In this document: piece by piece, positions 1,681 to 34,159 of the stretch
Layout: every line of letters begins with the position of its first letter
How positions within the stretch are numbered: position 1 is the first letter of the stretch
Source of the DNA: a virus
Lineage: Duplodnaviria; Caudoviricetes
IMG/VR virus record: IMGVR_UViG_3300042924_000307
Span: 1 to 37,758 of that record
Strand: one strand, 5' to 3'
DNA length: 37,758 nucleotides
The notes under the pieces: model-generated
The model's database searches: none
Told to the model about the DNA's origin: nothing
What the model saw: only the letters and a program-made list of their open reading frames with translations
Program-made: the position numbers and the translations under genes

Positions 1681-1954
1681 AAAACTGCTTGACCTTGTGA
1701 GGGAATCACCATGTCAGATCTGCGGGGCGCAGGATGGCACGGTGGTTGCCGCTCATTCAAACCAACAACGGGATGGCAAGGGAATGGGACTCAAGGCCCA
1801 CGACTACAGAATTGCGGCACTGTGCTACACCTGCCATGCCAAGATTGACCAAGGCTATGAATGGACCAAGGACGCTAAGTTCAAAGCTTGGGATGAAGCC
1901 CATCGCAGAACCATTGGATGGCTCTTTGAGGGGGGTCATCTTACTGTGCAATAG
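1667..1954 (+). CDS. Zn-binding HNH-like nuclease, DUF1364/YbcO-like
   Basis: CQIC...TVVAAH...GKGMGLK.HD...ALCYTCH..ID motif. Confidence 0.75.
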   Translation: MYRNRKLLDLVRESPCQICGAQDGTVVAAHSNQQRDGKGMGLKAHDYRIAALCYTCHAKIDQGYEWTKDAKFKAWDEAHRRTIGWLFEGGHLTVQ

Positions 1955-4900: not shown

Positions 4901-7900
4901 CAAAAATAGGCTTACGCTCAGAGAAGATGTTGAACTCATTTGGCGACCCATGATAGGCAACCATTGGGCGACCTTCTTCTTTGAATATGCTTTTACCAAA
5001 CCAGCGTTTAAACTCTGGTGTTGTTGGCGGAGCTTTCTTGTAGGCAGCATTCTCTGCGGCTTCGGGAGAGCGATAGAAAGACTTGAGGCTTTTCTTGCTT
5101 TCTTCTATACTTGACTCTTTAGAGGAGGCAGGTATGTTTAAAGTTCCTGAAGGCGCTAAGGTTTGGGCACTAGATGCCACACCAATTTTAGAACTCAAAG
5201 ATGGCTCAGTAGTCTTTGCCGCTAGACCAGACATCTCTGTGCCACCAGAAACATTTGCCAAGGCAGAACCTGCCGATGAAGGCGATATGGCATTCTGGGC
5301 AAAACGATACGCCTGACCATAAAGATCACGAGACAGGTCATCAAGCATGGCCTTCTTTGGATCTCCATCTACCAAGTTACGGCTCATTGCATAAAGCACA
5401 TGACCGCTGGTCTTGGCCTTGATCATCTCAGGAATGTTTAGTTGAATTTCAACAGCAAGACCGTTAGGTAATCTAACGTTCATCAAAATGTCCCGATAGC
5501 CTGTGTCCTGTGGATTTGTAAAGCGATCCTTTACACGCAGAACTTGCGGGAACTTCTTCTTGATTAACTCAAGCGCAGGTTGAATCTGACTCTCGCTATT
5601 GACAACGATGGTTGCACGTAGCAAGTCCATGATGTCAGAACCTTTTGGATTGCCAGCAATACCATCTTCAGTCTCAAGAATAAGCTTCTCTGCGGCTCTT
5701 CCCAAACCTTTAAGTCCGGGGATACGTGCCTCGCCATCTACTTCAGCGGCAATGTCTCTAATCTGTTTATCAAATTTAGGCTTGATTGCATTTGCCTTGT
5801 TGACATAAGGCATCAATGCTTGTTCAGCCTTAGCACGTTGCTCGGGCGTGACGCTTAAATTCTTAGGCTTCTCGGTGTATGTATTGAGAACCTCTTGAAT
5901 TTTGTAGAGAGTGCCATCACTGATAATCCCACGCAGATTTTCAGACTTCTGCGCGGCTTCAGTTGTGAGGGGAAGACTTAGCTTTCTTCTTCCTCTTTGG
6001 GAGGCGGGTTCTCCGAGTTCTGCTTGGAGTTGTCGAGTGGCTTCATCCCGAAGAACACGACTCCGCTCCCGAACAATTCCTCTTTCTCCTCTGGGGTCAT
6101 CTGACGGATTGGCATAGTTGTAACTTTCTTTTTCAGGGAATGCGGAATAAACATCTCCAACGGAAATATTGTAATCACCCTTTAGTTGATCATCAATCAA
6201 TGATGCCAACTCATTAGAATCAACGTTGGAATAATTCAACAGAATCATCTTGCCGTTCATGGTGGTTTGACCACCAATAGGCGTTTCTCCATCAACCTTG
6301 ATCTTACGAAGTTCTTGATAGATCTTGTCAATCTTGGCTGGGTCTTGCGTGTTTAAATCAACAGTGATGGCGCTGACTTTGTCTAAGCCTTTTGCTGGCT
6401 TAGGCGAAATAACCATCATGCTGTCTTGAGACAAAGCAAAGCCAATGAACTTGGAGATCTCTACGGAGTCACCAGAATTAAGGAATAAAGCAAATGATGG
6501 GTTGGTGTCATCCATATAACTACCAACTTGCGGGGCGATGTATCCATCTACATCAAAGTCAGCCATAGCCTTGCGCACAATGCTGCGTGCAATCTTTTCG
6601 CTAATGTTTAAACGAGTAGCTTGGTCTAAATTTCTCCACCGGTTGCTCAGTTCAACATTGTTGGGATCTGGCGCAACCTCAAAAACAACTTTCTTGCGGC
6701 GTGGCGCTTCACGCTCTTGCTCGATTACTGTTTTTGTTCTGTACTTTTCAAGGAACTCTTCCCGTTGTTGAGCTTCAAGCGGGCCAATTCTGTAAGGTTG
6801 TGTGCCAGCTGCTTGAGTTCTTTTGGCGACTGGCGCATTAGCCAATCGTTGTGTTGTTCTTGATCCAGATTTTGCTGCTGCGCTAAGTTGTCCTGCATCA
6901 TATCCCTCCTTTGTGAGAATCTTTTCCATTGCTCCTGCGTAGCTTTGACTTGTTACACGCAGTCTTACGCCAAGAGCCTTGTACAACTCTTGTTCAGGAT
7001 ACCAAATAGCCGCTTGCAAAGAAGCAGGCGGTACTCGCTTACCGTATTTTTCTTCAACCATGTCCACCATTTGACGGACAACATCACGCAAGTTTCTGCG
7101 TTCTGAACCACTGGCTGGCGCATCTCTGGGCTTATCTAATGAGTTAATCATTGACTCTGCCGCACCGACCAGCTTTGATTTTTCTTTTGTTTTGTCGTTG
7201 TATCCAGCGCGATTAACTTTGTAGTCACGCTCATGCGCACTCTTAACTTTACGCGCCAAAGCCTCAGCCGCATCATCATCTGTCTTTGCGGCTTCTACAT
7301 CTGCGTCATTAAACTGATTGGCAAAGACGCCATTGTCGCCTTTAATGTTTAAAGCATTTCTAAATTTACCAAGCTGTTCTTTGTAAAGCTCGGGATCAAA
7401 ATCTTTTAAGTTGCCAGTCAAACGACCAATGGTTCGCATAAACCACATGTCCATTGTTGTTGGCTCAAAGTTACCGTTTAAATTGGAATAGAAACCAAAT
7501 CCAATCTTCGGCCCAAAGACGGAAGAGCCTAGAACCTTCTCATCTTTTAGTTCTCCCTTGATGTCAAAGCCAGCACTGCGCATTTCATCAACAGTGAACT
7601 CTGTCTCAAGGAACTGACGCATAAGGTCTGGCCCCATGTCAGTCAGTAAAGCGTTAGCTAACTTAAAGTTGCTAACCATTGCGCCTTGATCAGCACCTTG
7701 GCCTATCTCTGGGAAACGTTTGTTAATTCTAAAAGAGTCATAGACTTTCATTGCAAACGCAAGATTGTCTTCAACGTTTAAACCCTGAGATGTAATAGCC
7801 ATTCCAACCCGGAAGGCTGATCGAGCATTTGGATCTGTATTGAGTTCTGGGTACTTAAGACCAGCCATACCCAATGTCTTGTTAATGACCGAGTCATACC

Positions 7901-10900
7901 ACTCAAGGTTAGCGCCACCAGAACGGATAGCCGCCATAGCCTCAATTGTCATCAATCTAGCAAGAGTCTTTCTGTCTTCCGGCTTTTCTGTATCAAGTAA
8001 AGGCAAGCCTGACTGACGACGTAAATCTTGCAAATGTTGAACAACAGCAGGCAACCTACCAATATCTGGGCCTTCAAACTGCTCAATGCCAGCTTTTCCG
8101 GTTTGATAAAGCAAAGATGTGGAAGCAAGCTCTTCGGGAGTTACTTCCATCTCATCAATGATGTCGTTTAAAACCTTTTCATACTTAGGCTGTATGGCGG
8201 GGTTAAGCATTCCATACTTTTCAGTCTTAAGAGCCATCTTAGACTCGCCACCAACGGTCGGAGCAGTACCCTTAAGCTCACCCTTCTCAATCTTGGCAAA
8301 GACATCCTTGTAAGTTTGGAAGCCTTGACCAGTTAAATAACTACGCAAGGCAGAGAAGAAATTACGCAACTTATTTAAGAGCGCAGTCAGCATTCCGGGA
8401 GGCGCTTTGGTTGCATCAAAGTCACCAAATGCATCGGCAATGGCCTCTTCAATCAGGTCTTCTTCGGTCAAACCATCTTTACTAGCAATGCCGGGAGTTT
8501 TGTAGGCTTCGTAACGGCTGATGACCTTGCCATCGTCAGTACGATAGCTCTTATCCTTAAGGTACTTCTGCACCCATTCTTTACGAGCCTGACGCTCCAA
8601 CGCAGACCACTGCTGGGGAGTGAAGAACCCCAGCTCTTTCAAGGCGTGGATAGCTTCATGGCGCAGGGTTTGAATAGGTTTTTCTGCGCTCAGTGCAATT
8701 TGAATAAGTTTTGCTTGGTAGGAGCCTTCAGCGCCACCCTCAATAGCATCAACAATCTTGAGGCCAACATCCTTTAAACCAAACTTGGTAAGCAGGGCTG
8801 GAAGCTCTACTTTCAACCTGTCCAGTTTGTCTTGTTGCTCAGGCGTTACCGCTGTTGCAGGAGCGCCCGTAACCGGCAATGCTGCTCTGCGTTGTATCTC
8901 TGCGTTTACACGCTGCTGTAACGCGGGCGAGCGCTTCTTGGCCAGCTCCTGAAGGTCTGTATCGGATAGATCCTCAAAGATGGCTTGTTCGGCCTCTTCA
9001 CGGGTCTGTTTCACCGTCTGAATGCCTTCGCCTTTACGCACTACGTAAGACTTAGGTTTAACCTTTGTAACGCCAATAGGAGCAACAGACAAGGGAGTTT
9101 GGTAAGACTCTTTCCTAGCCTTCAACTCGGCAATACGGGGGAATGCTTCATCAGTTACTTTTTGGTAAGCATCCTGTGCCGCCTTAAATTCTGGAGTACT
9201 GCGGTTGCCTGCAAGGATAAGTCTTTGGACTTCCTTCTCAGCCTTGCTTATCTTGGCTTCTTCGGCTTTAAGAGATTCATCAATGCTCTTAATTTCTTCT
9301 GCGGTCAGCTTGTTTAAACCTTCAACCTGTTGGTCGGCAGATTCTTTGGTTGTATGTTCGTCCAAAACCTCATCGCCACGTCTAACTTCATAGGAGGTAG
9401 CCTGCTCCTGCTCTGCACCAACTTCTTCAGAAATGCCGTATCCAGTAGGTGTAGTACGTGAGGGGACACTAACTTTTTTGTTTTTGGTAACAACATCACC
9501 CTTACGAGCGGCATCATTAATCAAAGCATTTACAGCAGAACCCTTAAGTCCTGTGGCTGTTTCTATTGCGTTTGTAACATCTTTAAAACCTAGCTCATCT
9601 GTGCCAAGCTCATCCATCTTGGTGTTTAAACTATCAATAGCCTGCGTAAACTGCTGCGGCGTGTAGTTTGTAGCGTTTAAACCTTCTGGCAGCGACTGCG
9701 TGGATGTAAATCCGGGCAGCTTTGCAAGCGCAGTAACAGCCGCATGGAGTTGTGGCTGAGACATCTGAGCAGGATCACTGACACCAGTTGTCCTAACAAG
9801 GAAGTCCTCAAAGCCCTGCGTACCTGTTTCAACGTTCTTGGCTTGAGCAGCTTCAATGATCTGCGTGGGCGTGTAAACCTCATTGGTGTAGCCGGTCTTC
9901 GCTGCAATTATTGCGTTTAAACTTGCAGACTCTGCTGCTTTGTCTTTTCCCGGCAGCGCATCAACAATGTCATCTAGACTAAAAGAAGTGAGTGCTGGCT
10001 TACCTGTATCAATACGGTGTTGCTCAACAACTTTAAATAAATCTGCACCAAGATCATCAGCAGTCAACATTCCCAGTGGGTTCTGGGTCATGCTTAACTC
10101 ATCGTTAATCTTCTTTTGGTTGGCTGCAATCTCTTCTTGCTGTTGTTTCTGGTATTCCTGCTGGCCTTTAAATTCATCCTGCACGTACTGCTGACGCATC
10201 TCTTTTAACTTAAGAGGAGATGCTCCAGCACCCAATATGCCACCTACTAATGCGTCATTTATAGCGTTGGCTAATACACCTTGGGTTAAATCTCTTTCAA
10301 CACCAGCTTGGTTAAGTGCAACGTTTGTACCGACAGTGCTAACCGCAGACTGAAGAGCTTCAGGCAAAGCTTCAGCTGCCGTGCTTCTACCAATAGCTTG
10401 CGCTACTGTTGGCTCAGGCAACTTTAATGATGGGCCTTTGACTTCAGGTAGTTTCTTGCCTATACGACCAACAAGCGATTCAACGCCTAGTCCACCAGCA
10501 AGAGCGCCAGCCGCACCGCCAGCAAGTTGACGTGGTGCATTCTCTAAAGAGTATTCTGCGGCTTTCTGAGCCAAACGTTCCGCTTCTTCTTCAGGTATCT
10601 TTCTATCAAGCAACTCACGCTTGACAGTCTCGTAGTCTTGGCCTTTCTGACCACCGACACCCATCATTGCGCCAACAGTAGATGCAGGGAGAGAGGAGGC
10701 AACTTTGGCGGCAGTACTGGCTGATACACCTAGCGAAGTTAATCGAGCGGCGGCGGCAGGCACAGCGGCTGCAGGCATTAACGCAGTTCCAAGAACCATA
10801 GGAACTATTGAGCCAGCACCCTGTGCAAGGGTCTGTAATGGAGCTTCAGCAAAGCCGCCAAGGACAGCTTTAATTTCTTCTAATGTATTGCCTTCAGCTT

Positions 10901-11228
10901 TCTTCTTAATCTCTTGGCGGCGCAGGATCTCAGCTTGACGCTCGGGAGTCATTGCCTCGCCAGCGGCTTGCTGGAGGCTAGTTAAGCCTTTAGAGACAAC
11001 GTTACCAGCACCAGCTACGTCGGTAACTGCTTGCGCACCACCGCCTACACCCTGACCAAAAGACAGGGCTAAATCTTTAAGGGAAAAACCCGCAGGCTTA
11101 GCTTCTTGCTCAGGTTTTTGAAAAACTTGTTGAGAAATGAGGTTCTGCGCCTGCTCTGGTGAGAGGCCAGCCGGAACTTCAAATCTAGCAATCCGGCCAT
11201 CCGGCATCTCAAAACGTGCGATTGGCAT
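1941..11228 (-). CDS. Giant (3095 aa) polyvalent virion/ejection protein: zincin metallopeptidase, HhH-glycosylase-like, RelA/SpoT-like nucleotidyltransferase, ART-PolyVal and C-terminal LPD38-like domains
   Basis: HEAIH..EEAIADAF (~8430-8660); GPKIG..TMDMWFMR..QAAIW (~6980-7910); K..R..K/DLLR/GYRD/EIQ (~5310-5780); FKRWFG..YHGS..FDANQVKSATGN..DIRYS (~4505-5030); NF.RKG..PFLNA..RIP.PFEVG (~2250-3010). Last gene of the structural module. Confidence 0.9.
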   Translation of the reverse strand: MPIARFEMPDGRIARFEVPAGLSPEQAQNLISQQVFQKPEQEAKPAGFSLKDLALSFGQGVGGGAQAVTDVAGAGNVVSKGLTSLQQAAGEAMTPERQAEILRRQEIKKKAEGNTLEEIKAVLGGFAEAPLQTLAQGAGSIVPMVLGTALMPAAAVPAAAARLTSLGVSASTAAKVASSLPASTVGAMMGVGGQKGQDYETVKRELLDRKIPEEEAERLAQKAAEYSLENAPRQLAGGAAGALAGGLGVESLVGRIGKKLPEVKGPSLKLPEPTVAQAIGRSTAAEALPEALQSAVSTVGTNVALNQAGVERDLTQGVLANAINDALVGGILGAGASPLKLKEMRQQYVQDEFKGQQEYQKQQQEEIAANQKKINDELSMTQNPLGMLTADDLGADLFKVVEQHRIDTGKPALTSFSLDDIVDALPGKDKAAESASLNAIIAAKTGYTNEVYTPTQIIEAAQAKNVETGTQGFEDFLVRTTGVSDPAQMSQPQLHAAVTALAKLPGFTSTQSLPEGLNATNYTPQQFTQAIDSLNTKMDELGTDELGFKDVTNAIETATGLKGSAVNALINDAARKGDVVTKNKKVSVPSRTTPTGYGISEEVGAEQEQATSYEVRRGDEVLDEHTTKESADQQVEGLNKLTAEEIKSIDESLKAEEAKISKAEKEVQRLILAGNRSTPEFKAAQDAYQKVTDEAFPRIAELKARKESYQTPLSVAPIGVTKVKPKSYVVRKGEGIQTVKQTREEAEQAIFEDLSDTDLQELAKKRSPALQQRVNAEIQRRAALPVTGAPATAVTPEQQDKLDRLKVELPALLTKFGLKDVGLKIVDAIEGGAEGSYQAKLIQIALSAEKPIQTLRHEAIHALKELGFFTPQQWSALERQARKEWVQKYLKDKSYRTDDGKVISRYEAYKTPGIASKDGLTEEDLIEEAIADAFGDFDATKAPPGMLTALLNKLRNFFSALRSYLTGQGFQTYKDVFAKIEKGELKGTAPTVGGESKMALKTEKYGMLNPAIQPKYEKVLNDIIDEMEVTPEELASTSLLYQTGKAGIEQFEGPDIGRLPAVVQHLQDLRRQSGLPLLDTEKPEDRKTLARLMTIEAMAAIRSGGANLEWYDSVINKTLGMAGLKYPELNTDPNARSAFRVGMAITSQGLNVEDNLAFAMKVYDSFRINKRFPEIGQGADQGAMVSNFKLANALLTDMGPDLMRQFLETEFTVDEMRSAGFDIKGELKDEKVLGSSVFGPKIGFGFYSNLNGNFEPTTMDMWFMRTIGRLTGNLKDFDPELYKEQLGKFRNALNIKGDNGVFANQFNDADVEAAKTDDDAAEALARKVKSAHERDYKVNRAGYNDKTKEKSKLVGAAESMINSLDKPRDAPASGSERRNLRDVVRQMVDMVEEKYGKRVPPASLQAAIWYPEQELYKALGVRLRVTSQSYAGAMEKILTKEGYDAGQLSAAAKSGSRTTQRLANAPVAKRTQAAGTQPYRIGPLEAQQREEFLEKYRTKTVIEQEREAPRRKKVVFEVAPDPNNVELSNRWRNLDQATRLNISEKIARSIVRKAMADFDVDGYIAPQVGSYMDDTNPSFALFLNSGDSVEISKFIGFALSQDSMMVISPKPAKGLDKVSAITVDLNTQDPAKIDKIYQELRKIKVDGETPIGGQTTMNGKMILLNYSNVDSNELASLIDDQLKGDYNISVGDVYSAFPEKESYNYANPSDDPRGERGIVRERSRVLRDEATRQLQAELGEPASQRGRRKLSLPLTTEAAQKSENLRGIISDGTLYKIQEVLNTYTEKPKNLSVTPEQRAKAEQALMPYVNKANAIKPKFDKQIRDIAAEVDGEARIPGLKGLGRAAEKLILETEDGIAGNPKGSDIMDLLRATIVVNSESQIQPALELIKKKFPQVLRVKDRFTNPQDTGYRDILMNVRLPNGLAVEIQLNIPEMIKAKTSGHVLYAMSRNLVDGDPKKAMLDDLSRDLYGQAYRFAQNAISPSSAGSALANVSGGTEMSGLAAKTTEPSLSSKIGVASSAQTLAPSGTLNIPASSKESSIEESKKSLKSFYRSPEAAENAAYKKAPPTTPEFKRWFGKSIFKEEGRPMVAYHGSPNEFNIFSERKPIFVSTNPNDAEFFASLKRLGKAQGKPYIYPLWVRAEKPFDYENQDSIEEIRRTYKALLDSRNESGSLPETAIKNGIWSIIENADIQQAIKDAGFDSFYVLEGGRKNLAVFDANQVKSATGNLGDYSESKDIRYSLRNVQNEVSTLPNGAAINSSINRIAPGREQEGFFERIINAFKPQSVDALRQQFLNRYNQLGVYDKEVAKRMGGAALLADSSAESAALMSDNAAAIATMACGIEGKGGIPVFNKGYTTISNANGEKGVLEILMPLAKIGDPRIYQTYQFWAGSLRGSRLLANGTDHTYTKAEIDYAKELLVKYPEFKQVQEDWIKYNNGLMKYAVSTGVLSPEKAAEFMKYSDYIPFYRQIDGETTVGPRLFQNISGVTPPKKLKGLKEGQDVPFADFLETIVRNTQSIIQSGMKNTAAQRAIGQAMYLNVAQKRQDVSYAPGVVTVLENGKPVSYDVADQLFIDAVKSLNLPELPFLSFFAAPANLLRNLVTKDPGFMMANLMRDSLSAWVTSGAKMTPIASTIANFGRAIGGNDPIYIALRNAGVVGGYEFAAGVENSGVILGESLRRATGTQTGTEKALKPFTSLWRGLEKGTEASDAATRMAVYKATLEKTGNEAEAIFRAMEVMNFNRKGNLAIVRILTAAVPFLNARMQGLDVFYRAAFGKMATADAAAIQKSFFIRGATLMALTSMYWFLTHDEEEYLNQEQETRDNNWLFPSAGIRIPIPFEVGVLFKVVPERILEYAFGSDTGKDMADSFKRNLINTFAFNPIPQTVLPFVEARTNYSFFTMRPIVGQGMENVAKEYQMAPNTSEAAKRLGGILGESPIIVDHIMKGYTGSLGMYAIDLIDAVLFSNGDSPKPAKRFEQMPVIKRFIVDKEAKGTVTAYYDLKNSVDEVVRTVNLMERTGNVEDMADYVEKNAHLFGIRNYISSVEKQMKTLREAVIQIRSSDMSAEDKRDTLSAITQAQIAMTSNIREIKKTIAQ

Positions 11229-11238
11229 AGAAACAACC

Positions 11239-13074
11239 TTATTTTTCGTAACCCAAGAATTTTACTTGCCCTGTACCTTGTGCGCTAGTGGGTAATGTAT
11301 CAATACCAGCACCTGAACCTTGACGTTGCAGATATTCTCTAACTTCTTTGTCCCTAGCAGCTTTCATCTCAATATACTTGGGATTTTTAGGGTTCAAAGA
11401 CAAAGCTTCAAGTAATCCATACTTCTTGTCAATGTCTGCAATACCTTTTTCAATGTTTTTCCGGCGAGTAACATCCGCAGATTCCATTGTTCCTGCAGCC
11501 CCAATTTCTGCGGCTCTTTGCATAGCTTGCTCAAGAGTCATCTTCTTGGTTGGGTCAGCAGCCATCAAGGCCATAGCACGGCTCATCAAGTTATCACGAT
11601 TCTGAGCGCCAATCTGAGCGGCACGAATGTTACTCTGACGGTTCTTCTCATTCTCCACAGCTTGTGCGGCAATCCTCTTAGCTTCATCGTCAGATGCATT
11701 AACAGACTTAGCGGCATCAAATGCCTTCTTAAAGATTTCATCACGCTCTTTAGAGGTCATGTCAAACATGCTCTTCTTTTCGGCAAACTCAGCTTCAGAC
11801 TTCTTAGCACCCAACTCAAGGATTTTGTCCATAAGTTCATTTTGCTTGCCTTCACGAGCAAGTTGAAGTTGTCTTTGACGAGCAGCGCCTATAGCGCCTG
11901 ATTCAGCAGATGAGCGTCCACCGCCTAGAGCAATTTGCTCTAAGTACTCCATTGTTGCGTCAAAACCTGTTTTAGGAGCGTTTAGTTTTTGTTTGCGTGC
12001 TTCAAGTTCTGCGGCTGTCTTGTCAAAAATAGACAGGTCACGATTACCAACTTCTCTCATGTAACGATTACGCAGTTCCTGAGCTTTGGCTTCAGGATCT
12101 TGGTTCATCATGTCAGTAAGCTTTTTATAAGCAGCACTTACAGAAGGAATGTTGGCTAAGTCTTTTAAGCCGCCGGGCATAGGCGCATTGTCTGCGTTTA
12201 CACGAGTCTGCGCATTAATATTGGCTTTTGGAGGTGCTGGTGGAGGAGGAGGCGTGCCGGGCTGCGCTCTAAAACCTGCATCTGCTGCGTTAAGTTGACT
12301 GCGTATAGCTGCTGGATCAGTTGCCACTACAGCGTTTTTTTGACGATCTTGTTCTGCAACTTTAACTTCTCTTTCAGTTGGCTTACGCAACATATCTGTA
12401 AATGGAGTTGGGCTAAATCTAAATTTATTACCAACTTGATCATCTGATTGAGTATTAACTTCTTTTCCAGTTAATGCACTACCAATACGGTTTAAGAAAC
12501 GTTCTAATCCAGAACCTGCATTTGCGGCCAAGTTGTAACCAGCGGCTATAGGTAACTGCGCAATATCCCCTGCAGCGGCTAAAGGCTCTAATAGTGCTCT
12601 GCGATCTTCTTCACGTTGGCGAGCTTTCTTTTCTTCTTCTGTTTCTTTAACTTTGTTGCCCGTGCTAAACCCAATAATTCCACCTTCAGCATATCCCTCA
12701 CCCACGTTAGATTCCAATGAATCTAAACCTTGTGCTTGCATCGGAGGACGGGGAATTCCGGGAGGAACTATGTTTGGCTGTCCGTTCTTGCGTTGTTGCT
12801 CCTGCGCCTGTTGCACCATAAGAGCTTGCAATGCCTGACGGGCACGCTCTTGTACGTCTTCAGCAACGGTAGGCATGTTGGTAGGAATCTGAAGAGCCTG
12901 TTGGATGCCCATGTTCTGACGACCCTGACTAAGGTCATAAGCAGCCATAAGCTGACGCAGATCCTGTGGAATCCCGCCATTCTTTTTCTTATCTGCTTCA
13001 ACCTTTGCGTTTAAAGGCTCAGGATTACCCTTGTACGCAGATGCAATTTGATTAACAGTTGGTTGTGTAAACAT
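11239..13074 (-). CDS. Putative internal virion/ejection protein (611 aa, helical, Q/A/K-rich)
   Basis: Position between the nozzle and the giant protein; coiled-coil-like C-half; YAEGG motif. Confidence 0.7.
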   Translation of the reverse strand: MFTQPTVNQIASAYKGNPEPLNAKVEADKKKNGGIPQDLRQLMAAYDLSQGRQNMGIQQALQIPTNMPTVAEDVQERARQALQALMVQQAQEQQRKNGQPNIVPPGIPRPPMQAQGLDSLESNVGEGYAEGGIIGFSTGNKVKETEEEKKARQREEDRRALLEPLAAAGDIAQLPIAAGYNLAANAGSGLERFLNRIGSALTGKEVNTQSDDQVGNKFRFSPTPFTDMLRKPTEREVKVAEQDRQKNAVVATDPAAIRSQLNAADAGFRAQPGTPPPPPAPPKANINAQTRVNADNAPMPGGLKDLANIPSVSAAYKKLTDMMNQDPEAKAQELRNRYMREVGNRDLSIFDKTAAELEARKQKLNAPKTGFDATMEYLEQIALGGGRSSAESGAIGAARQRQLQLAREGKQNELMDKILELGAKKSEAEFAEKKSMFDMTSKERDEIFKKAFDAAKSVNASDDEAKRIAAQAVENEKNRQSNIRAAQIGAQNRDNLMSRAMALMAADPTKKMTLEQAMQRAAEIGAAGTMESADVTRRKNIEKGIADIDKKYGLLEALSLNPKNPKYIEMKAARDKEVREYLQRQGSGAGIDTLPTSAQGTGQVKFLGYEK

Positions 13075-13085
13075 TTATATGTCTT

Positions 13086-15464
13086 TCAAACAGGGAATCC
13101 AAGATTCTTTAACAAATTATTTAAAGTGGTAGAGCCTTGAGCAAATTTAGTCAGGTTACTAGGCTGACTCATTTGATAGCTTTGAGCCGCCAATGGCAAA
13201 CCGCTAAGTAACGATTGTTGGAATTGAACCATCTTATAAGGGTTTGCCCTAGCTTCTTCAAACGCAGCCTTATCTGCCGCAATACCTTCAGCCTCAATGC
13301 CACGCTGTTGAGCGCCAAGAGCTGCTTGTTGTTGCAGGTTAGCCAAGCCCAATTGACCACTAGAGATGCCCAAATCACCTTGAGCTTTTGCAGCTTGAAG
13401 GCCAGTCTGAAGACCTTGCAGTCCCAAGTTAGCACCAAACTGTCTAGACTGTTCTTGTTGTCTTGCCGCATCCAGAGCTGCGCTGATGTTTCCTTGACCA
13501 GCAGTAAGTCCAGCTTGTTGGTTAGCCAAAGCCGCCTGTAGATTTTGTGCGCCAGCAGTGGTGGCCGCCTGCAAGCCTTGGCTTGCACCAAACTGACGAG
13601 ATGCCTCTTCAGCTTGACGACCAGCCAAACCATATTGAGCCGCAGACTGAGCGCCAGTCATGGCTTGTTGTTGGTTAAACTGACGGGCAGCTTCTTGAGC
13701 TTGCTGGGCAGACATTCCATACTGAGCCATCATCTGAGCCGCAGTCATAGACTGACCAGCACCAAATTGTTTGGATTGCTCAGAAGCCTGCTGAGCCTGC
13801 ATATTACGGGCTTGGTCAGCGTTGAATTGACTCATGGCGTTCTGGAACGCTGTGTCGTAGCCTTTACCAGTAATATTTGCTAAGTTAGTACCAAGGTTAC
13901 GTTGGTTCTCAGCGGCAAGAATAGCACCACGGCCACCACCAAAAGCACCGGCACGGGTCATTGCGGCTTTGTTTGCTTGCTCTGTAATCTGCGATTGACG
14001 GCGAGCTTCTTCCAGTTGGGGGTTCAGCGAAGCTTGCAAGTACGGGTTCATGTACTGCTGGGCTTGCTCTCCACCAAATGTGCCAGATGTAAACGCTGTA
14101 TTTTGATACTGACCGGGAGCTTGGAATTGGTTTGTAAAGTTAGTAGCAGCCGACTGTTCTGGTGCTTTGAACTGATTGCCAAATGTAGCGCCCTGATAGG
14201 CAGATGGGGCTTGGAATGTTGAGGAAACATTTTGCGCCGCCAACTTATCATACTGCGGAGCACCAGATGGTGAATAGCTTATGCCTTGAGCTTTAGAAGC
14301 AATATCACCAGCAGTTTGTGCGGCTGTACCAACACTAGCGGGAACTGCCAGATTAGCCGCAGTACCAAATGCTTGTTGCTGTAAGTTAGATGCACCAGCA
14401 GTCAATGGACCGCCGTATTCTTGATACGGCATCTCGGACAAAGCCTTGCCTTTACCAAGCATGTCAGTGACATACTCGCCCGCCCAGTTAGAAAGGTTGG
14501 ACTCAGCGCCAGTAATGCCTTGACTGGCGTTTTTATCAGCGGTAACCAAACTCGGGGTTTGACCAGAAAACTTTTTAATCTCGCCGCCAGCGGCATAAGC
14601 CAGACCACCGGGCATGAACTTGTCAGGATTAATTTTCTTGCCTTGTTTTTTGTTTCCTGTACGGGCCTTGCGAATCTTGTCCATCATGCTGTAGAGTTTT
14701 TTTGCACCAGCATCGGAATTACCATTACCCAAATGCGACACAACATCGGCAGGAATAACAAACTCACCATGACTAAGTGCCGCTGGTTGTTCTTTGCCAA
14801 TTCGTGCTGGAATTTTGTCGGCCATGCCATCAGTCCCGCCTCGTAAATATCTACCTTCGGCCATGCCGCCTTCGGCGTATCTTTCCCTTCCTTGCATATT
14901 TTCAGGCGTGTCATACTCACGAAGTGCGGCTCTTGGTGTATTTATGGCTTGCACGTCTTTTATAAGTTGCTGCGCTGCTGGATCTGTAGACGTAGTATTA
15001 CCAACCAAAGAAGCTAAACCGCCGCCGATTGGGGATGAACCTTGGGGTGTAAACGTTACATCACCACCGTAACGAGTTCCTCCTGCACCGGGACGACGAC
15101 CAGCAGGGGGCGCAGTAACCATACTGCGTGTTGCAGTGTATTTAGGAATGCCGCCTTGGTATCCAGAAGATGAAGATGAAGGAGTAGTTGAGCCAAGTAT
15201 GCCTGCTACACCGCCACCTAGAACGCCAAGTTTACGAAGGTCTATCCCACCCTTATCGTTGCCAAACAAAGACTTAAGGATGCCGCCTAGTTTGCTTGTA
15301 TCTATATTAGGAAGGGTTCCGCCGTAAGTTGGGTCAAATACAGACTCATCACCGCCGCCCATAACAGAGGATAACGCGCCACCATAAGTTGGATCAAATA
15401 CAGATTCGTCGTCCCCTCCGGAACTAGGCAGCATATTTAAGTTAATAAAATCTTCTAAGGTCAT
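13086..15464 (-). CDS. Putative DNA pilot/ejection protein (792 aa; G/A/Q-rich, repeated ExxRQF and F[QK]AP units)
   Basis: AAAGGAAA RBS; DGMADKIPA..LSHGEFVIPADVV block; MNPY..AGAFGG.R block; Q/A-rich helical repeats typical of podovirus DNA-transfer proteins. Confidence 0.75.
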   Translation of the reverse strand: MTLEDFINLNMLPSSGGDDESVFDPTYGGALSSVMGGGDESVFDPTYGGTLPNIDTSKLGGILKSLFGNDKGGIDLRKLGVLGGGVAGILGSTTPSSSSSGYQGGIPKYTATRSMVTAPPAGRRPGAGGTRYGGDVTFTPQGSSPIGGGLASLVGNTTSTDPAAQQLIKDVQAINTPRAALREYDTPENMQGRERYAEGGMAEGRYLRGGTDGMADKIPARIGKEQPAALSHGEFVIPADVVSHLGNGNSDAGAKKLYSMMDKIRKARTGNKKQGKKINPDKFMPGGLAYAAGGEIKKFSGQTPSLVTADKNASQGITGAESNLSNWAGEYVTDMLGKGKALSEMPYQEYGGPLTAGASNLQQQAFGTAANLAVPASVGTAAQTAGDIASKAQGISYSPSGAPQYDKLAAQNVSSTFQAPSAYQGATFGNQFKAPEQSAATNFTNQFQAPGQYQNTAFTSGTFGGEQAQQYMNPYLQASLNPQLEEARRQSQITEQANKAAMTRAGAFGGGRGAILAAENQRNLGTNLANITGKGYDTAFQNAMSQFNADQARNMQAQQASEQSKQFGAGQSMTAAQMMAQYGMSAQQAQEAARQFNQQQAMTGAQSAAQYGLAGRQAEEASRQFGASQGLQAATTAGAQNLQAALANQQAGLTAGQGNISAALDAARQQEQSRQFGANLGLQGLQTGLQAAKAQGDLGISSGQLGLANLQQQAALGAQQRGIEAEGIAADKAAFEEARANPYKMVQFQQSLLSGLPLAAQSYQMSQPSNLTKFAQGSTTLNNLLKNLGFPV

Positions 15465-15466
15465 AA

Positions 15467-18118
15467 TTATTTCCTTTGTGCGGTGTTCTCACCAGCGGGT
15501 GTTAAATCAATAGTTGACCCAAACAAATCTTCCATCAATTTTATATGGGCATAAGGGTCTTGCATAGGGGCTTGTTGCACTGGGGCTTGCTGTCCAATTA
15601 AAAGTGCCAGCAAACCTGATAAGTCCATATCAGACGAACGTGATGCAGGGGCACGGGTTGTTGGGGTTTTGGCCGGAGCTTTAGGTGCTGGGGCTACGCC
15701 GGGGGTAGTTGGCGCTGGGGTTGATGTAGTTGGCGGTCTATTGCCAACAATCTCCAGTTCGCCGCCGTCGTCAATTGGCGTAGGCATAAAGTCATCGTCC
15801 GTTGGCAGGTAGCTAGGTTCTTTGTTACCTGTGATGATAAGTCTCTCTAAATCTGATATCTCAGGATTTTTAATGGGTGTGGCTGGAAAGTCATTGTCCG
15901 TTGGCAAGTAAGCGGGTGGGCGATTACCAACAATTTCAACTCTATTAGAGTCGGCCACGGGAAGCGGTAGGAGAGGCTCACCTGCATCTTCAAGATTCCT
16001 GAAAATGTCCTCGGACACACCTTTGCCAACCGTATCACGATTGCCGGTAATAACAAGCCGCTCTAAATCTGTAATAGGCGCTTTGTATGGCTCTAATGAT
16101 TTAATAAACTCTTCTATGTTTGCAGGCTCTTGTTGAACCGTCATTTCTTCTTTTGGACGGTCGCCCGTTACTACTAACTCGGAAAGTTTTTCTGCTGGAG
16201 TCAGCGAGGGGAGTTCACCCGCATTTTCAAGATTGCTAGAAATGTCTCCAGACATACCCCTGCCGACAGTGTCACGGTTGCCGGTAATAATCATCTCATT
16301 ATTGGCGTTAACCATATTGAGAATGTCGTCGTTGCTTAGCCCGCTATCAGACGGTCTATCGATTGTTTTGATGCCAATCGACTTTAAGAAATCATCAGCC
16401 TCATCAACCTGCGGTTCAGGGGTAAAAGATCTTGTAGCTGACGACGGCCCATACATGCGCTCAAGGTCTTCAATTGCTCTTTGCGTATTTGCATCTTCCT
16501 CGTCAGGGGAAATTTGTGACCGACTAATAGCTGCGTTAAGTCTATTTTCTATGAGTTGTGTTTGCTCTTCTGGGCTAAGCGGGTCTTCTGTTTGCAAATC
16601 TGCGCTGGACTTTGTTGGTGAACTTCCACCGGATCCTGACATTGCATCCATGCCGTAAAGCATCATGGTTAAAGGATCACCACTCTCAATTGCTTTAACT
16701 GCGCCAATGGTTTTGGAAATATCTTTAAGATCTACTCCGCCAATGTTAGTTACCCCACCAAGATTAGCGCCAGAAAAAGCAATAGCCAATGGGTCGCCGC
16801 TCTTTACGGCGCTTGCAAATCTGGCTGCGTTGGCGACATCGGCCATCCCACTGATACCAGCCATGTTGCCAAGACCAGCAGCGCCCGCAATTGCGCCCAA
16901 CACATTACCTTGTTTGGCTGCGATTAGAGAGTTTAAACCTGCGGCAAAAGGCTGCAGACCGGGAACAAATGATGCAAGTGTTAATAACGGGGCAATCTTG
17001 CCAATGTCGCTACTAGATGCGCCTTGTGTGTAAAAAATAGGGTTGCCTTGGGCATCAAACTGTACGCCGTACCCAGTGTTTCCTTTACCTTCGTAGGTTC
17101 CACCAAAGAAATTACCTGTCTGGCGTTCTGTGTATGTGTTTGGAACGGCTTGACCTGTTTCTTTATTACCATAGGTTTGCTCAGTTACAGTCTGATAGAT
17201 TGGTTCACCTGTCTCTTCGTATCCTTGGATCTTTTGGACTTGTCGAGTTATTGGGCCAAACTGCTTGATGTCAGTAATTCCGATACCAGCCAAAATCTTA
17301 GCCATATCTTCAGCATTTTTTTCAGCTGAGCCATAGCCCGCGCCACTCCACTTTGATGTGTCGCTTGAGCCAAGAATCTGCTTAGTTAAAGAACCAAGCA
17401 CCTCGGGTGCTGGCCCTGCTGGTTTAGCGGGTTGTTCAGGCTGAGTTGGTTGAGGAGTTGGTGCTGGCGTAACGCGAGTCGGCTCAGTAACATCTTGCAC
17501 AAATCTTTCAAGTGGCTCTTCAACATCTTCAATGATGTCAGATTTTGGATTACTGGGTGCGAATGGAAGCGGCTCAGCTACTGGTTGAGCAGCGGGTTGA
17601 GTTGGCGTAGGAGGAGGCTCAGTAATATCTTGTACAAATTTTTCAAGCGGCTCTTCAACGACAATGTTATTTAAACCTCTAAAAGGTTCATACGCTGGAG
17701 CTGCTTCAGCAACGGGCTGTGCTATTGGTTGAGCGGCGGGTTCTGTTTTATCGTTAAAAAACTGAGCGTAGTTAAACGGCTCTTCAACATCCTCAATGAT
17801 GCCACTTGAACTATTAAAGGGTGCATACACTGGAGCTGGTTCAGCTATTGGTTGAGCAGTGGGTTGTGTTGGCTTAAAGTAATCCTCAAACTGCTGAGCA
17901 AAATAATTAACTTCAGGCGCAGCGGGTTCTTGGGACGCAAGTAATGCTGCAACAGGATCTATCTGGGGCGCAGCGGGTTGCGGTGTTGCTTGAACAAAAG
18001 GTTGTGGGGGGCGGATGATATTTGTTAAAAATTCTTCCTGAGAAGGACCATCCATCCCGAAGCCACCGTCTTCAAAGTCGTATCTAATTAAACCAAGGTC
18101 GCGATCAAATCTTGCCAT
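15467..18118 (-). CDS. Putative ejection protein (883 aa): acidic Pro-rich repeats, central globular and glycine-zipper hydrophobic segment, C-terminal TonB-box-like repeats
   Basis: AAGGA RBS; long intact ORF in the ejection cluster; repeats described under findings. Confidence 0.75.
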   Translation of the reverse strand: MARFDRDLGLIRYDFEDGGFGMDGPSQEEFLTNIIRPPQPFVQATPQPAAPQIDPVAALLASQEPAAPEVNYFAQQFEDYFKPTQPTAQPIAEPAPVYAPFNSSSGIIEDVEEPFNYAQFFNDKTEPAAQPIAQPVAEAAPAYEPFRGLNNIVVEEPLEKFVQDITEPPPTPTQPAAQPVAEPLPFAPSNPKSDIIEDVEEPLERFVQDVTEPTRVTPAPTPQPTQPEQPAKPAGPAPEVLGSLTKQILGSSDTSKWSGAGYGSAEKNAEDMAKILAGIGITDIKQFGPITRQVQKIQGYEETGEPIYQTVTEQTYGNKETGQAVPNTYTERQTGNFFGGTYEGKGNTGYGVQFDAQGNPIFYTQGASSSDIGKIAPLLTLASFVPGLQPFAAGLNSLIAAKQGNVLGAIAGAAGLGNMAGISGMADVANAARFASAVKSGDPLAIAFSGANLGGVTNIGGVDLKDISKTIGAVKAIESGDPLTMMLYGMDAMSGSGGSSPTKSSADLQTEDPLSPEEQTQLIENRLNAAISRSQISPDEEDANTQRAIEDLERMYGPSSATRSFTPEPQVDEADDFLKSIGIKTIDRPSDSGLSNDDILNMVNANNEMIITGNRDTVGRGMSGDISSNLENAGELPSLTPAEKLSELVVTGDRPKEEMTVQQEPANIEEFIKSLEPYKAPITDLERLVITGNRDTVGKGVSEDIFRNLEDAGEPLLPLPVADSNRVEIVGNRPPAYLPTDNDFPATPIKNPEISDLERLIITGNKEPSYLPTDDDFMPTPIDDGGELEIVGNRPPTTSTPAPTTPGVAPAPKAPAKTPTTRAPASRSSDMDLSGLLALLIGQQAPVQQAPMQDPYAHIKLMEDLFGSTIDLTPAGENTAQRK

Positions 18119-18127
18119 GTTTTTTCC

Positions 18128-18760
18128 TTAAGGCAGGGCCGACACAAACGACATAGTTGCCACTACCGACTGCGTAGACGGCTTAGTAGGCGTACCGGAA
18201 GCGGCAAGATGTTGGATGGTTACGGCAACATTAGGCACAGACCAATAGATTTCTATGTACTGACCCGCCGTCATACTTAGAAAATAGTTCCAGCCAACAA
18301 TTGCGTGTCCATCCGTTCCTGCGTGTCTGTTTGGAATAGATACAAAGCCAGTTGACCCCGGTATATCTACCCCGCTTTGTTTTAACCAGATGTAAACATC
18401 TTGAAAGGCAGTGTCTGTGTTTTGAAACTGGGCACTAAACTGTAGGTTGTAAATACCAGCAGTTGCTACAGTAATTTTAGAACTGCTGATGCTGACACCG
18501 TTGGCAAAATCGGTGGTATTCAGTGTCATCAACGTAGCTGTATTGGCTACTGCTGTCTGATCCTGATCGCTGGAAAACGCGCCATACGGAACCGACAAAG
18601 TTTGAAGCTGGTTAAGTATGCTTTCTAACCGGTTAAAGTACAGACGCAAAATGTTATTGAGTTGGTTCTGGTACTGCTCGTTATATACCGGCGTAGCAAA
18701 CGGCAATGCAGGGGGCTGCACCCTTTGGAGTTCGTACTCTGATGTAACAATCAAGCTCAT
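18128..18760 (-). CDS. Tail-associated structural protein with C1q/BclA-like jelly-roll C-terminus
   Basis: PYGAFS...ITVATAGIYNLQFSAQ...GQYIEIYW beta-strand pattern; N-terminal short coiled coil. Confidence 0.6.
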   Translation of the reverse strand: MSLIVTSEYELQRVQPPALPFATPVYNEQYQNQLNNILRLYFNRLESILNQLQTLSVPYGAFSSDQDQTAVANTATLMTLNTTDFANGVSISSSKITVATAGIYNLQFSAQFQNTDTAFQDVYIWLKQSGVDIPGSTGFVSIPNRHAGTDGHAIVGWNYFLSMTAGQYIEIYWSVPNVAVTIQHLAASGTPTKPSTQSVVATMSFVSALP

Positions 18761-20625
18761 GAGTTACCTCTGCGGCCATCTTGTTTGATGTCAATGCGGG
18801 GGCTACCCAGCTGCCATGCACAACCTAATTGATTGGACTCGATCTTCATAATCATCTGACGGCCACGCACCCTGACGTATACCTGACCCGTAAACTCTTC
18901 AATCGGCACAGTGGCTGTTCTTACAATCGTAGCGTCCGAATTACCGCCTAAAGAGATTGGGCTGTTGTAGCCTGAACCAGAGTTCTGCATAGGGATCAAC
19001 GTCATGGTCACTTGCGGGGAGGCAGTATCCGACCCACGGAACGTGATGTCAGGCACGATACGCCAGACAAACCCAAAGTGGTCGCCGTCATCAATGTCAA
19101 ACTCAGTAGTCTCAATCACTGCATTAATTGGCAGGGTTGTACCTGTCTCATTGTCATCATTGCCCTGCTCATGGAACACAATGTTGTAGCTGTAGGTAGC
19201 CGCCATTGGATGCTGGCGCAACGCAGAGTCAAGCCACGCTGTACGGGCCATTGTTCCATACGCCCACACATCTTCTGCGTAGTTATAGGTAACGTATTTA
19301 TCAATCGTAAACGAGTTGGCCGAGCAGTAGAAGAACCAGACTTCGTTAAAGCCTTCGTTGGTAGACGCAAAGATCTGAGCGGCCTGCTCTAAGTTAATGT
19401 CTTGGAAGATGTACTGACGCAAGTCACAACGCAACGTCTGTGTACGGCCATCGTATTTGTAGAACTTATCAATACCCATCCAGTAAGTCACACCAGACGC
19501 AATGGCGCACGCATTTGGACCAGCAATAGACAAGTTATCAGCCAATAACTGAGCGCCCCATACAGCTGGTGGGCCTTGGTACTGCATGGAATACAAAGCA
19601 GAATCTGTCCAAACCAATATCTCTTGGCGGGACTGTAAGGCCGTTACAATTTTAGACCCTCTAGACAGCTGTAAGCTACCAGCCTGATTGGTCGCAGCGG
19701 GAAACCATTCAAGGTAATCTTCTTGGTCAGACCAACGAATGAGCGTTGGGTTCTGGTCAGCCGAGCCGTAATCGTTACAGCCAAACGCAAACGTAAACCT
19801 AGATGAATCAGAAATCAGAATTAAGTTCTGAACTGTAGGAACAGAGCTAGCCCCTACCAAACTAGAAATCAAAACACCCCGTGTTGTCAATGACGTATTG
19901 GCTTTCCAGATGTATATTTGGCCTCCGTTAGGACCAAAGATTAAATCTTCACCAAAGTTAGCCTGACTCCAGATACGCATCTGGTTGGTTGATGCCGAAC
20001 CAATACCCCACGTACCAGACCCCCATGCACCCGCGCCCCAGCCAACTAAAGGAATGGCAAACGCTGTACCAACGTTAACTTGGTATGCCGCTACGACAGC
20101 TGCCCCACCGCCCGTAGTTGTTGCGTTAGCCGCAGATGCCGCTGTAATTTCATATGTTGTTGTAGACGTACCAATAGTAGAGAGTTGATATTCCCCATTA
20201 AGGGTTAGTCCGGCAACAGCTGTAGCACCGCTAAAGGTTACAAAGTCACCATTGATATAACCGCCCGTAGCATCCGTTACAACTACTGTGGTTGAGCCTG
20301 ATGTGGTAGCAAATGGGTTGTTAACAAGCGTTGCTGGGGTTTTGCGCAAGGGGGTGATGTCGTTGTACGCACCGCCAGACTCAATGTAGTACTTTAAATT
20401 TGTACCTACGCTCAGTAAGTTCTGCCCGCCCAGAGTTACCCAGTTCCACAAAGACCGGCAAACACCTTGGAATATCGTAGAAGAAATGCGTTGCCAGCCA
20501 CCAATTTTCTCGGGTGTGCCTTGGCGAAACCTTATCTTGTCCGAAACATAGTAGCCATTCTCCGATGTGTATCGAGTGTTTTCTCTGTTTACACCGGCTT
20601 TCTGCTGAAGTTTCTTTAATGGCAT
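18757..20625 (-). CDS. Tail nozzle / DNA stabilization protein (P22 gp10 / tubular protein B-like)
   Basis: 622 aa, beta-propeller-like (IRWSDQED, ILVWTD, EVWFFY, YNY.E.VW), typical C-terminus ..RIDIKQDGRR; podovirus synteny. Confidence 0.7.
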   Translation of the reverse strand: MPLKKLQQKAGVNRENTRYTSENGYYVSDKIRFRQGTPEKIGGWQRISSTIFQGVCRSLWNWVTLGGQNLLSVGTNLKYYIESGGAYNDITPLRKTPATLVNNPFATTSGSTTVVVTDATGGYINGDFVTFSGATAVAGLTLNGEYQLSTIGTSTTTYEITAASAANATTTGGGAAVVAAYQVNVGTAFAIPLVGWGAGAWGSGTWGIGSASTNQMRIWSQANFGEDLIFGPNGGQIYIWKANTSLTTRGVLISSLVGASSVPTVQNLILISDSSRFTFAFGCNDYGSADQNPTLIRWSDQEDYLEWFPAATNQAGSLQLSRGSKIVTALQSRQEILVWTDSALYSMQYQGPPAVWGAQLLADNLSIAGPNACAIASGVTYWMGIDKFYKYDGRTQTLRCDLRQYIFQDINLEQAAQIFASTNEGFNEVWFFYCSANSFTIDKYVTYNYAEDVWAYGTMARTAWLDSALRQHPMAATYSYNIVFHEQGNDDNETGTTLPINAVIETTEFDIDDGDHFGFVWRIVPDITFRGSDTASPQVTMTLIPMQNSGSGYNSPISLGGNSDATIVRTATVPIEEFTGQVYVRVRGRQMIMKIESNQLGCAWQLGSPRIDIKQDGRRGNS

Positions 20626-23209: not shown

Positions 23210-23872
23210 TTATGCTGATGCGGCTTGCAATGGTGCTAGGTCTTTGGTCTTCCCAAGGACTTTATACCCATACTTCTCAGATTGTCCACGAAAAATTCTT
23301 GATCTAAGTGCCTGTCCTGATATTCCAAGATGTTCAGCAAGATCATTTATCGTTTTGTAGATTTTTCCATTGTATTCAACAGATTTTGCAAGCAGTGATT
23401 TTTCGCCACTAATTTTTTCTACAACTTCTGGTCGCTTCATAGACGAATTGACTGACATCCCAAGCCTAGCTTCAGCGGATTGTTTGCGTCCATACATAGG
23501 ATTATCTGAACCATAAAGACCATAACGTGGGTGTTTTTCACCAGACATTTTGCCTTTTAACTTTTCAGAAATCAAATGCTTAGTTTCAACGGTATGACGA
23601 TAGCCTTTTGTGCCACCGCAACCACCATCGGTTTTGTTTGCAAGGTTAATACCAAGCCTACGCAACTGGTCAATTCGCTCTTGCTCTACCAGAAATACAA
23701 GCTCCTCATCATTAGACTCGGCAATCAATCGACCTTCATATCCAGCCTTATTGACAATACCGTGCCAATGTTTGTTTCGCTTGTCTTTAGAGCGCACCCG
23801 ACCGCCGCACCCTTTACCGACATAAAAGACGGTATTGGTGTCAAGCCGAATGTGCTCGTAGACGTAGAACAT
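23210..23872 (-). mobile_element. Free-standing GIY-YIG-type homing endonuclease with NUMOD3-like repeats
   Basis: FYVYEH..FYVGKG..R..E..N catalytic pattern; HTVETKHLISEK, GEKHPRYG and GSDNPMYGRKQS DNA-binding repeats; C-terminal HTH-like part; TAATG coupling. Confidence 0.85.
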
Positions 23873-32747: not shown

Positions 32748-32977
32748 CTAAATCCTGCCGTTTTCTTTGCAATCGTTTTAGGTTGGGCTACAAACTGTTT
32801 GCCTGATGCCTTGCCAGCACGTTTGGCTTTGGTCGTAGCCGCATACTCTTGAGGAGACAATGACTTAATTGCTGCTTCAGGCAAATACCGCTCACCCGTC
32901 TTGCTTGACGGTTTACCAGACTTAGTGCGCCACTTTTGGTCGCCCCAGTCTTTAAGCGATTTCTGAGGAGCTTTCAA
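32744..32977 (-). CDS. Small basic protein (DUF5872-like C-terminal half)
   Basis: QKSLKDW..QKW.T..RYLP...GKQFV; TTG start with GGAGG upstream. Confidence 0.65.
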   Translation of the reverse strand: MKAPQKSLKDWGDQKWRTKSGKPSSKTGERYLPEAAIKSLSPQEYAATTKAKRAGKASGKQFVAQPKTIAKKTAGFR

Positions 32978-33249
32978 TCTCTGTATCCTCCGCCAGCTTC
33001 CTTGTATTTCTTAGCTACAAGCTGAGCTTTACGAGCCGACCATTGGCCTGCGCCAGTACCGTGGGTTGCTGCGGCTTTTACTTGAGACACAATCCGCTTG
33101 CGCAGACTAGGCTTGGTGTAATTACCTGCGGCATTAACTTTTCCGCCTTCAGCGTACTGCGTGAAATCAGTGCTGTCACGGCGGGCTTTCTTCTTCCCGC
33201 CGGGCATCTTAGAGGGAGATATTGCTCCCATCCCACGGCTTGCCATCAT
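32974..33249 (-). CDS. Small basic protein (YAEGG tag plus DUF5872-like N-terminal half)
   Basis: NYTKP.LR...GQWSARKAQL....Y...GGGY. Confidence 0.7.
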   Translation of the reverse strand: MMASRGMGAISPSKMPGGKKKARRDSTDFTQYAEGGKVNAAGNYTKPSLRKRIVSQVKAAATHGTGAGQWSARKAQLVAKKYKEAGGGYRD

Positions 33250-33250
33250 G

Positions 33251-33778: not shown

Positions 33779-33787
33779 GTTAGCTCC

Positions 33788-34159
33788 TTAGCACTTGCCG
33801 CCACGTTTCATGGCAATCATTGTTCCTTTGGTTTTGCCTTTAGAAGCAATGCCATCAGGTGTTTTGCCAGTCTTTACAGCGCCCATCTTAGATGCAGCCA
33901 TACCGCCACCAGCCAGTTTAGTCATAGAAGAACCTTTGTGCAAACGGCCTTCGTGTTTGTTTACGGCCTTCTGCATCATTTTCTTGTCCATTTTTACGTC
34001 TTCGTGTTTCATGTCGCCACCTTTAGAAAATTTACGGCCTTTGTCAGCCTCGTTAAACTCTTTACCCACAGACTGTGGGACGCCTGCTTTCTTAGCAAAC
34101 GCTGGGTTGTTAGCCACCGCCGCCATGAAATTGTGTTGCTTCTTGCTTGTGCTTGGCAT
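33788..34159 (-). CDS. Small basic protein MPSTSKKQHNFM... with FSKGG, LAGGG, DGIASKGKTKG, MKRGGKC
   Basis: TAATG coupling; shared motif family. Confidence 0.75.
   Translation of the reverse strand: MPSTSKKQHNFMAAVANNPAFAKKAGVPQSVGKEFNEADKGRKFSKGGDMKHEDVKMDKKMMQKAVNKHEGRLHKGSSMTKLAGGGMAASKMGAVKTGKTPDGIASKGKTKGTMIAMKRGGKC

Follow-up and report, generated by a model that had tools for sequence, protein, structure and literature searches.

The window analysed here is a linear virus record of 37,758 nt (37.8 kb), about 60% complete, which holds the structural half of a podovirus. The source phage is a freshwater podovirus of the HTVC023P type; in its capsid protein it shares 65% identity with Pelagibacter phages HTVC023P and HTVC027P and 73% with Pag-Yong1. 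The tail nozzle gene is followed by a gene for 210 aa and then by genes for 883, 792, 611, and 3,095 aa. The nozzle and the four large genes are:

18757 to 20625, minus strand: tail nozzle, 622 aa, by profile matches to phrog_3287 (E 3.5e-64), PDB 9nwi_Y (E 4e-19), and the 8zkk/8zkm nozzle (E 1e-7).
15467 to 18118, minus strand: 883 aa protein, two genes past the nozzle, first large gene of a putative ejection cassette.
13086 to 15464, minus strand: second cassette protein, 792 aa, Gln/Ala/Gly-rich, assigned by homology to cassette proteins.
11239 to 13074, minus strand: third cassette protein, 611 aa, without a known family.
1941 to 11228, minus strand: polyvalent protein, 3,095 aa, final cassette gene, with LPD38, ART-PolyVal (ADP-ribosyltransferase), and RelA/SpoT-like domains.

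This order of nozzle and cassette is maintained in relatives. The 792 aa protein is homologous to cassette proteins of HTVC023P, Pag-Yong1, DSL-LC04, and RW, and has no sequence match in the PDB. Podovirus ejection proteins have been described, in the available text of PMC8954989, as an operon of a small set of growing ORFs. Based on that layout and on the location of its gene in a cassette directly past the nozzle, with a very large ORF downstream, the 883 aa protein is a putative ejection protein, the role that an earlier note on this DNA had given it and that the gene's position supports. The 3,095 aa polyvalent protein is likely to be host-takeover cargo for injection. Elsewhere in the window, a NUMOD3-containing homing endonuclease (23210-23872) is present between the tail and lysis genes.

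The 883 aa protein has no Pfam or NCBIfam family. Its single weak PHROG match, to the endolysin phrog_790 (E 9e-4, aa 259-455), was set aside because it lies in a Gly/Ala-rich stretch. The regions of the protein are:

17414 to 18118, minus strand: N-terminal region, aa 1-235, acidic and Pro-rich, disordered by prediction; aa 15 is the site of an aromatic-x-x-GG motif.
17009 to 17407, minus strand: conserved folded core, aa 238-370, as modelled by AlphaFold2, with no clear fold match.
16649 to 17008, minus strand: Gly/Ala-rich segment, aa 371-490, predicted to be helical.
15620 to 16309, minus strand: acidic, Pro-rich tail with the repeat array, aa 604-833, predicted coil with pLDDT mostly below 50.

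The AlphaFold2 model, built on an alignment of 64 sequences, is confidently folded at aa 238-370 only. Structure searches gave a best Z of 4.3 for the whole model and 3.4 for the core, with no domain-covering Foldseek match and no usable match in the ESM Atlas. A hydropathy of 1.5 is not reached in any 19-residue window and no signal peptide is seen by inspection. An aromatic/aliphatic-x-x-G-G motif is found in 7 of the 15 ORFs examined (regions 11239-18118 and 32974-34428), these being the 883, 792, and 611 aa proteins and four small basic ORFs past the capsid genes. It is absent from the capsid, nozzle, tail fibre, and 3,095 aa proteins, and it may be a head-packaging signal.

The six repeated motifs that the earlier note had read in this ORF (15467-18118, minus strand) are confirmed. 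They are listed with their scores on a profile of transporter TonB boxes, described below:

16274 to 16303, minus strand: copy 1, aa 606-615, weak, 3.0 bits, 5th percentile of true boxes.
16157 to 16186, minus strand: copy 2, aa 645-654, 19.2 bits, 49th percentile, best site in the proteome of the record.
16037 to 16066, minus strand: copy 3, aa 685-694, 16.5 bits, 36th percentile.
15920 to 15949, minus strand: copy 4, aa 724-733, weak on the TonB profile, 3.6 bits, fitting the TolB N-terminal strand better.
15821 to 15850, minus strand: copy 5, aa 757-766, 8.2 bits, 12th percentile.
15737 to 15766, minus strand: copy 6, aa 785-794, weakest, 0.9 bits.

The surroundings are acidic and Pro-rich as had been described (Asp+Glu 18%, Pro 10% in the array region). 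In the AlphaFold2 model all six copies are in coil, with pLDDT mostly below 50 and no solenoid, so that the prediction bears out the proposal of a disordered chain and places the motifs in flexible, probably exposed segments. The copies start 39, 40, 39, 33, and 28 aa apart, and the spacing across the family is 13 to 45 aa. A regular structural repeat or beta-solenoid is not indicated, given the spacing of 28-40 aa here and the lack of a predicted fold.

No DNA-level tandem array is reported at the motif region by Tandem Repeats Finder and synonymous sites are saturated among the six copies (pS 0.82, pN 0.32). The copies are therefore old. The residues have nevertheless been kept, with pN/pS at 0.39 in the motif and 0.88 over the next 10 residues, a contrast that is partly by construction. 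The motif regular expression forbids proline, so that a count of proline exclusion is circular and was not used. The spacers are not random, consisting of a few block types common to close relatives. Short blocks between the boxes are conserved across relatives, including Y-L-P-T-D-D-D-F and V-F-D-P-T-[FY]-G-G, the latter being found twice more at the start of the 792 aa gene (13086-15464); the inter-box blocks (15467-16309) may be further linear motifs.

Neutral expansion of a repeat in a low-complexity linker, with no binding partner, could produce such a tail. Copy number ranges from 0 to 7 among close relatives, many of which lack the motif, and the flanks are repeated as well. Set against this are the residues retained at saturated synonymous sites and the recurrence of the same pattern with unrelated spacers in distant lineages, which make this explanation very improbable.

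The likeness to TonB boxes was assessed using the 45 aa preceding the Plug domain (PF07715) in 134 TonB-dependent transporters, 127 from the Limnohabitans-bin family and related betaproteobacterial bins and 7 from Azospirillum; the TonB and transporter sets were chosen from a guessed host family. The motif learned from these segments by a Gibbs sampler, without any phage input, is L-x-[EPR]-V-[VTE]-V-T-[AG]-[TS]-R, mostly ending 4-9 residues ahead of the Plug. The phage consensus matches it column by column over 10 columns. On this profile, copies 2 and 3 are the top two of the 12,010 ten-residue windows in the proteome of the record and five of the six copies are the best five sites of the 883 aa protein, while the highest score among the 11,136 windows of the other 41 proteins is 12.6 bits. 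The summed score of 51.4 is not reached in any of 10,000 shuffles of aa 590-800 (mean -23.2, maximum 18.1), nor is it reached in any of 20,000 column permutations. Conversely, a profile built from phage sequences only (102 distinct motifs) locates the true box in 124 of the 134 transporters against 3.7 expected, although this test somewhat favours any free strand located in a linker rich in Ala and Pro.

The array has the sequence pattern of a TonB box, with three copies at only the 3rd to 6th percentile of true boxes. It does not have the position of one, being at aa 606-794 of 883 rather than N-terminal, in a protein without a Plug or a bacteriocin translocation domain. The phage differs from the transporters at column 4, where it mostly has Leu in place of Val, and at column 9, with Asn/Asp/Lys in place of Thr/Ser. 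The resemblance that had been claimed stands as an in-register match but is uneven, three of the copies being weak (3.6, 3.0, and 0.9 bits). Scored instead on alphaproteobacterial boxes (a profile of 39 boxes drawn from 40 segments), the best copy is only at the 8th percentile, a faint hint from sequence of a betaproteobacterial host.

It has to be considered that the motif may be a generic beta-strand that adds on to a phage partner or mediates self-assembly, in the inner core, the conduit wall, or strand complementation, and that it resembles a TonB box since both are free amphipathic strands. Single sites of at least 8 bits occur at 2.61 per 10,000 aa upstream of the nozzle, 1.63 in the nozzle, and 2.57 downstream, and single matches are common in beta-rich tail proteins. 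As single-site density is not raised in cassette proteins, multi-copy occurrence alone is used as evidence; multi-copy proteins number 1 of 460 upstream, 0 of 116 in the nozzle, and 8 of 351 downstream. Four of the 27 matches to a motif HMM are Ig- or cadherin-like repeat proteins, with strands scoring up to 22 bits, suggesting that the box pattern is in part that of a generic beta-strand. The tail has other conserved blocks, one common to the start of the next gene, and two relatives have 15-17 Thr-rich copies that resemble low-complexity drift. However, the match covers columns 1, 3, 7, 8, and 10, beyond strand alternation, and the box variants specific to particular lineages are each found in transporters. 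Neither the swapping of tails among near-identical cores, which fits an essential structural role poorly, nor the absence of a predicted solenoid favours a generic strand, and this explanation is considered unlikely. The motifs were also considered as prohead-protease cleavage sites, which was dropped as conservation extends to T-G-x-R; this reading is weakened too by the lack of a protease annotated among the Pag-Yong1 head genes.

A strand of this kind could alternatively address TolA, the paralogous motor, or both motors, by mimicking the N-terminal strand of TolB. In 29 genomes of the same bacterial family the first strand of TolB is Q-F-R-V-E-[IV]-[TS]-G-V-G, and copy 4 scores 7.1 on the TolB profile and 4.4 on that of TonB. 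When columns 3-8 alone are used, the TolB profile is preferred by 3 of the 6 copies. Structurally, the complex of TolA with TolB resembles that of TonB with its box, and the use of TolA by g3p is described in the text available of PMC7391070. Over all ten columns, however, the TonB profile is preferred by 91 of the 102 distinct phage motifs (87 with heavier pseudocounts) and that of TolB, built on only 10 distinct sequences, by the other 11. The phage ending [ND][RK] fits the transporters and not the V-G ending of TolB, which is seen in 0 of the 6 copies, and the medians on the phage profile are -5.2 bits for TolB strands and +5.4 bits for boxes. TolA as the target is thus improbable.

Homologue searches returned 58 proteins for the array region and 1,055 for the core (aa 240-500), 120 of the latter being among the matches listed. 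Among the 131 listed relatives with a core anchor, 58 carry 1-7 motifs and 73 carry none; the remaining 3 of 134 proteins were without the anchor and were left out. The presence or absence of the motif switches 8 times on a quick tree, and at least 3 of these switches are forced by well-supported branches. Between relatives whose cores are nearly identical the array tail has been gained or lost by swaps, motif-free relatives bearing other tails. As the label switches on a tree of core-anchored relatives, the tail is an exchangeable module, and its absence from 73 of the 131 listed close relatives makes the array accessory. It is probably useful only on TonB-rich hosts. Among the alternative tails on the same core (P0108, P0130, P0132, P0134, P0059-P0106) are, in some relatives, a domain that contains HExxH and is probably folded and, in others, short aromatic repeats resembling hairpins; the family has the look of a core that delivers interchangeable cargo.

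A further 112 loci, many of them partial, were retrieved by the nozzle alone. Two of these, L093 and L120, have multi-copy arrays with unrelated spacers, and three (L079, L084, and L109) have one scoring site each in the equivalent gene. Arrays are a minority trait among the nozzle-retrieved loci. The L093 protein used as a query found no match besides itself. One isolate genome has what looks like an integrated relative, L056 (10001-16822, on a 452 kb contig of Azospirillum soli), in which no gene of the array type was seen from the nozzle up to the next cassette gene.

The motif HMM was also run against 1.84 billion proteins. Its 27 matches comprise 9 proteins in or detectably related to the 883 aa family, 11 more of the same build (20 together), 4 Ig-like proteins, 1 ORF that is probably spurious, and 2 small signal-peptide-like proteins. 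Several come nearer to true boxes than the source phage does, sharing as many as 9 of 10 residues with a real box and scoring as high as the 92nd percentile. Two of the matches have relatives on viral contigs, where these are again the first cassette gene; at least 2 sites are present in 9 of 9 loci for one and 10 of 11 for the other, and the nozzle profile did not detect a nozzle in the first of these lineages. In the equivalent gene of distant phage lineages there are 2-17 copies, set between unrelated spacers, and different lineages carry different box variants, each present in transporters. Of the 27 multi-copy ORFs among 1,170 phage ORFs, 26 are the first cassette gene, most array-bearing loci having been retrieved with array-bearing queries. 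The expectation that the motif is kept while its spacers diverge holds across lineages with unrelated spacers; in close relatives the spacer blocks are kept as well and 73 of 131 proteins are motif-free. Extreme arrays are seen in the first cassette gene of L350 (5779-8325) and L351 (8001-10427), which has 17 box-like copies in the former and 15 in the latter, all of them Thr-rich.

For five of six cultured relatives (HTVC023P, CRP-902, DSL-LC04, QDWS535, and Pag-Yong1) there is no site of at least 8 bits in the equivalent gene. The sixth is Caulobacter phage RW, whose gp66c contains the best site of its 80 ORFs; at 16.8 bits this site stands at the 10th percentile when compared with alphaproteobacterial boxes. 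Three degenerate look-alikes in gp66c, spotted by eye, are each below 5 bits. This RW protein is common to three near-identical isolates, and the word TonB does not occur in the available text of the paper covering RW-like isolates (PMC11053796). Pelagibacter HTCC1062 has been reported to lack TonB-dependent transporters and roseobacters to have 0-5 (PMC3400609, in the text available). A good site in RW and none in the SAR11 phage HTVC023P is a pattern, resting on two phages, that fits a link to the host. No relative of the 883 aa protein was found in the genome_contigs database, where 32 nozzle-bearing contigs fall in the bins of many unrelated taxa. Three GenBank records of 65,014 bp each with equal capsid scores (OQ594354, OL906435, and PP438419) are assigned to three different cyanobacterial hosts, and their true host may be a co-cultured heterotroph.

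Read together, the sequences give about an even chance that the six repeats are handles for the host TonB motor, on the swappable tail of a probably ejected protein, that aid entry. The 883 aa protein would be packaged and exit through the nozzle so that its tail hangs in the periplasm. Each box could then be added as a beta-strand to the TonB C-terminal domain, as in FhuA-TonB, where the box pairs by strand addition according to the accessible part of PMC11658791. Several low-affinity copies would raise the chance of capture, repetition offsetting weak binding, and TonB-ExbBD would pull or tether the chain toward an energised patch of inner membrane, which would help the DNA conduit to form.

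Of the hijacking of TonB proposed in the earlier note, the register match, predicted disorder, recurrence, and cassette position are in favour; accessory presence, variable spacing, and the rival claim of TolB are not. Known boxes are N-terminal, ahead of the part that is pulled, and here the array is C-terminal, which counts against the TonB handle, as does the conservation of other short blocks in the tail. The idea of a ratchet with a fixed step is without support, given that neighbouring copies in the family can be anywhere from 13 to 45 aa apart.

The boxes may instead jam TonB, by titration or by blocking superinfection by TonB-dependent phages or bacteriocins, with no use of its force. 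The sequence evidence is identical for this and for the handle, variable copy number fits an avidity sponge, and there are small proteins (P0152, P0159) that combine tandem boxes with a signal-peptide-like start. Few copies of the phage protein would come with a virion, however, and newly made protein would not reach the periplasm, no signal peptide being apparent. Jamming is accordingly quite improbable, and the titration suggested before is unlikely for the few copies that a virion would bring. The small proteins P0152, P0160, and P0159 (108 and 152 aa) have, by inspection, a signal-peptide-like start and 3-6 tandem high-scoring TonB boxes with little else, and could be decoys or regulators of TonB in cells; a search of 251 genomes of the order did not find P0152.

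How short-tailed phages move ejection proteins across the periplasm, and what powers this, is an open question to which a TonB handle would speak. More tentatively, and with doubt prevailing, a widespread group of short-tailed phages may plug an ejected protein into TonB-ExbBD via box arrays, with proton-motive force drawing the DNA conduit across the periplasm and the array being gained or dropped through host-dependent tail swaps. Should the motifs bind TonB, these abundant aquatic phages would be coupled to the host motor independently of a receptor. The box variant could then point to the hosts of phages not yet in culture, and resistance through tonB mutation would form a new class. The cultured Caulobacter phage RW is an inexpensive first test system, if a weaker case than the source phage.

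Hijacking of TonB through a self-encoded box is already known in bacteriocins, as is capture of TolA by filamentous phages. The apparent lack of a previous description for tailed phages is borne out within the open-licence PMC and bioRxiv literature, judged by titles and abstract openings with supplements excluded, where no tailed-phage protein with its own TonB box was found; the main text of PMC8954989 on podovirus ejection proteins has no occurrence of TonB. The 883 aa protein shares with T7 gp14-16 and their relatives the small operon of growing ORFs (as far as the available source text describes it), here straight after the nozzle, and differs in that no sequence or fold match to them was found. 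Phages T1 and phi80 have infection that is linked to TonB, as is putatively the case here, but their need for it runs via the receptor FhuA and no phage-encoded box is described for them in the text available of PMC11658791.

In comparison with the TonB box of a transporter, the phage repeats have the same 10-column pattern and register and the same flexible setting, and the best copies score like median true boxes. The protein that carries them differs in having no Plug or barrel, six copies rather than one, and an internal, C-terminal array. Filamentous phage g3p engages a periplasmic motor by beta-strand addition from a virion protein, as is putative here; its N1 domain adds a strand to TolA, from a folded domain with one antiparallel site (PMC7391070, in the part available), whereas here there are linear repeats in a tailed phage and TonB is the likelier target. 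A further parallel is with the group B colicins and klebicin C, which carry their own TonB box in an unstructured N-terminus (PMC11658791, in the accessible part). In both cases a foreign protein would offer a box in a disordered segment for TonB-ExbBD to draw in, but these bacteriocins have one N-terminal box and, as described in the same part of that source, enter via a host receptor or TolC, whereas the phage has an array that would arrive through the nozzle. If binding holds, the array would work like the bacteriocin hijack of TonB, while by its position it is neither a transporter box nor a colicin box.
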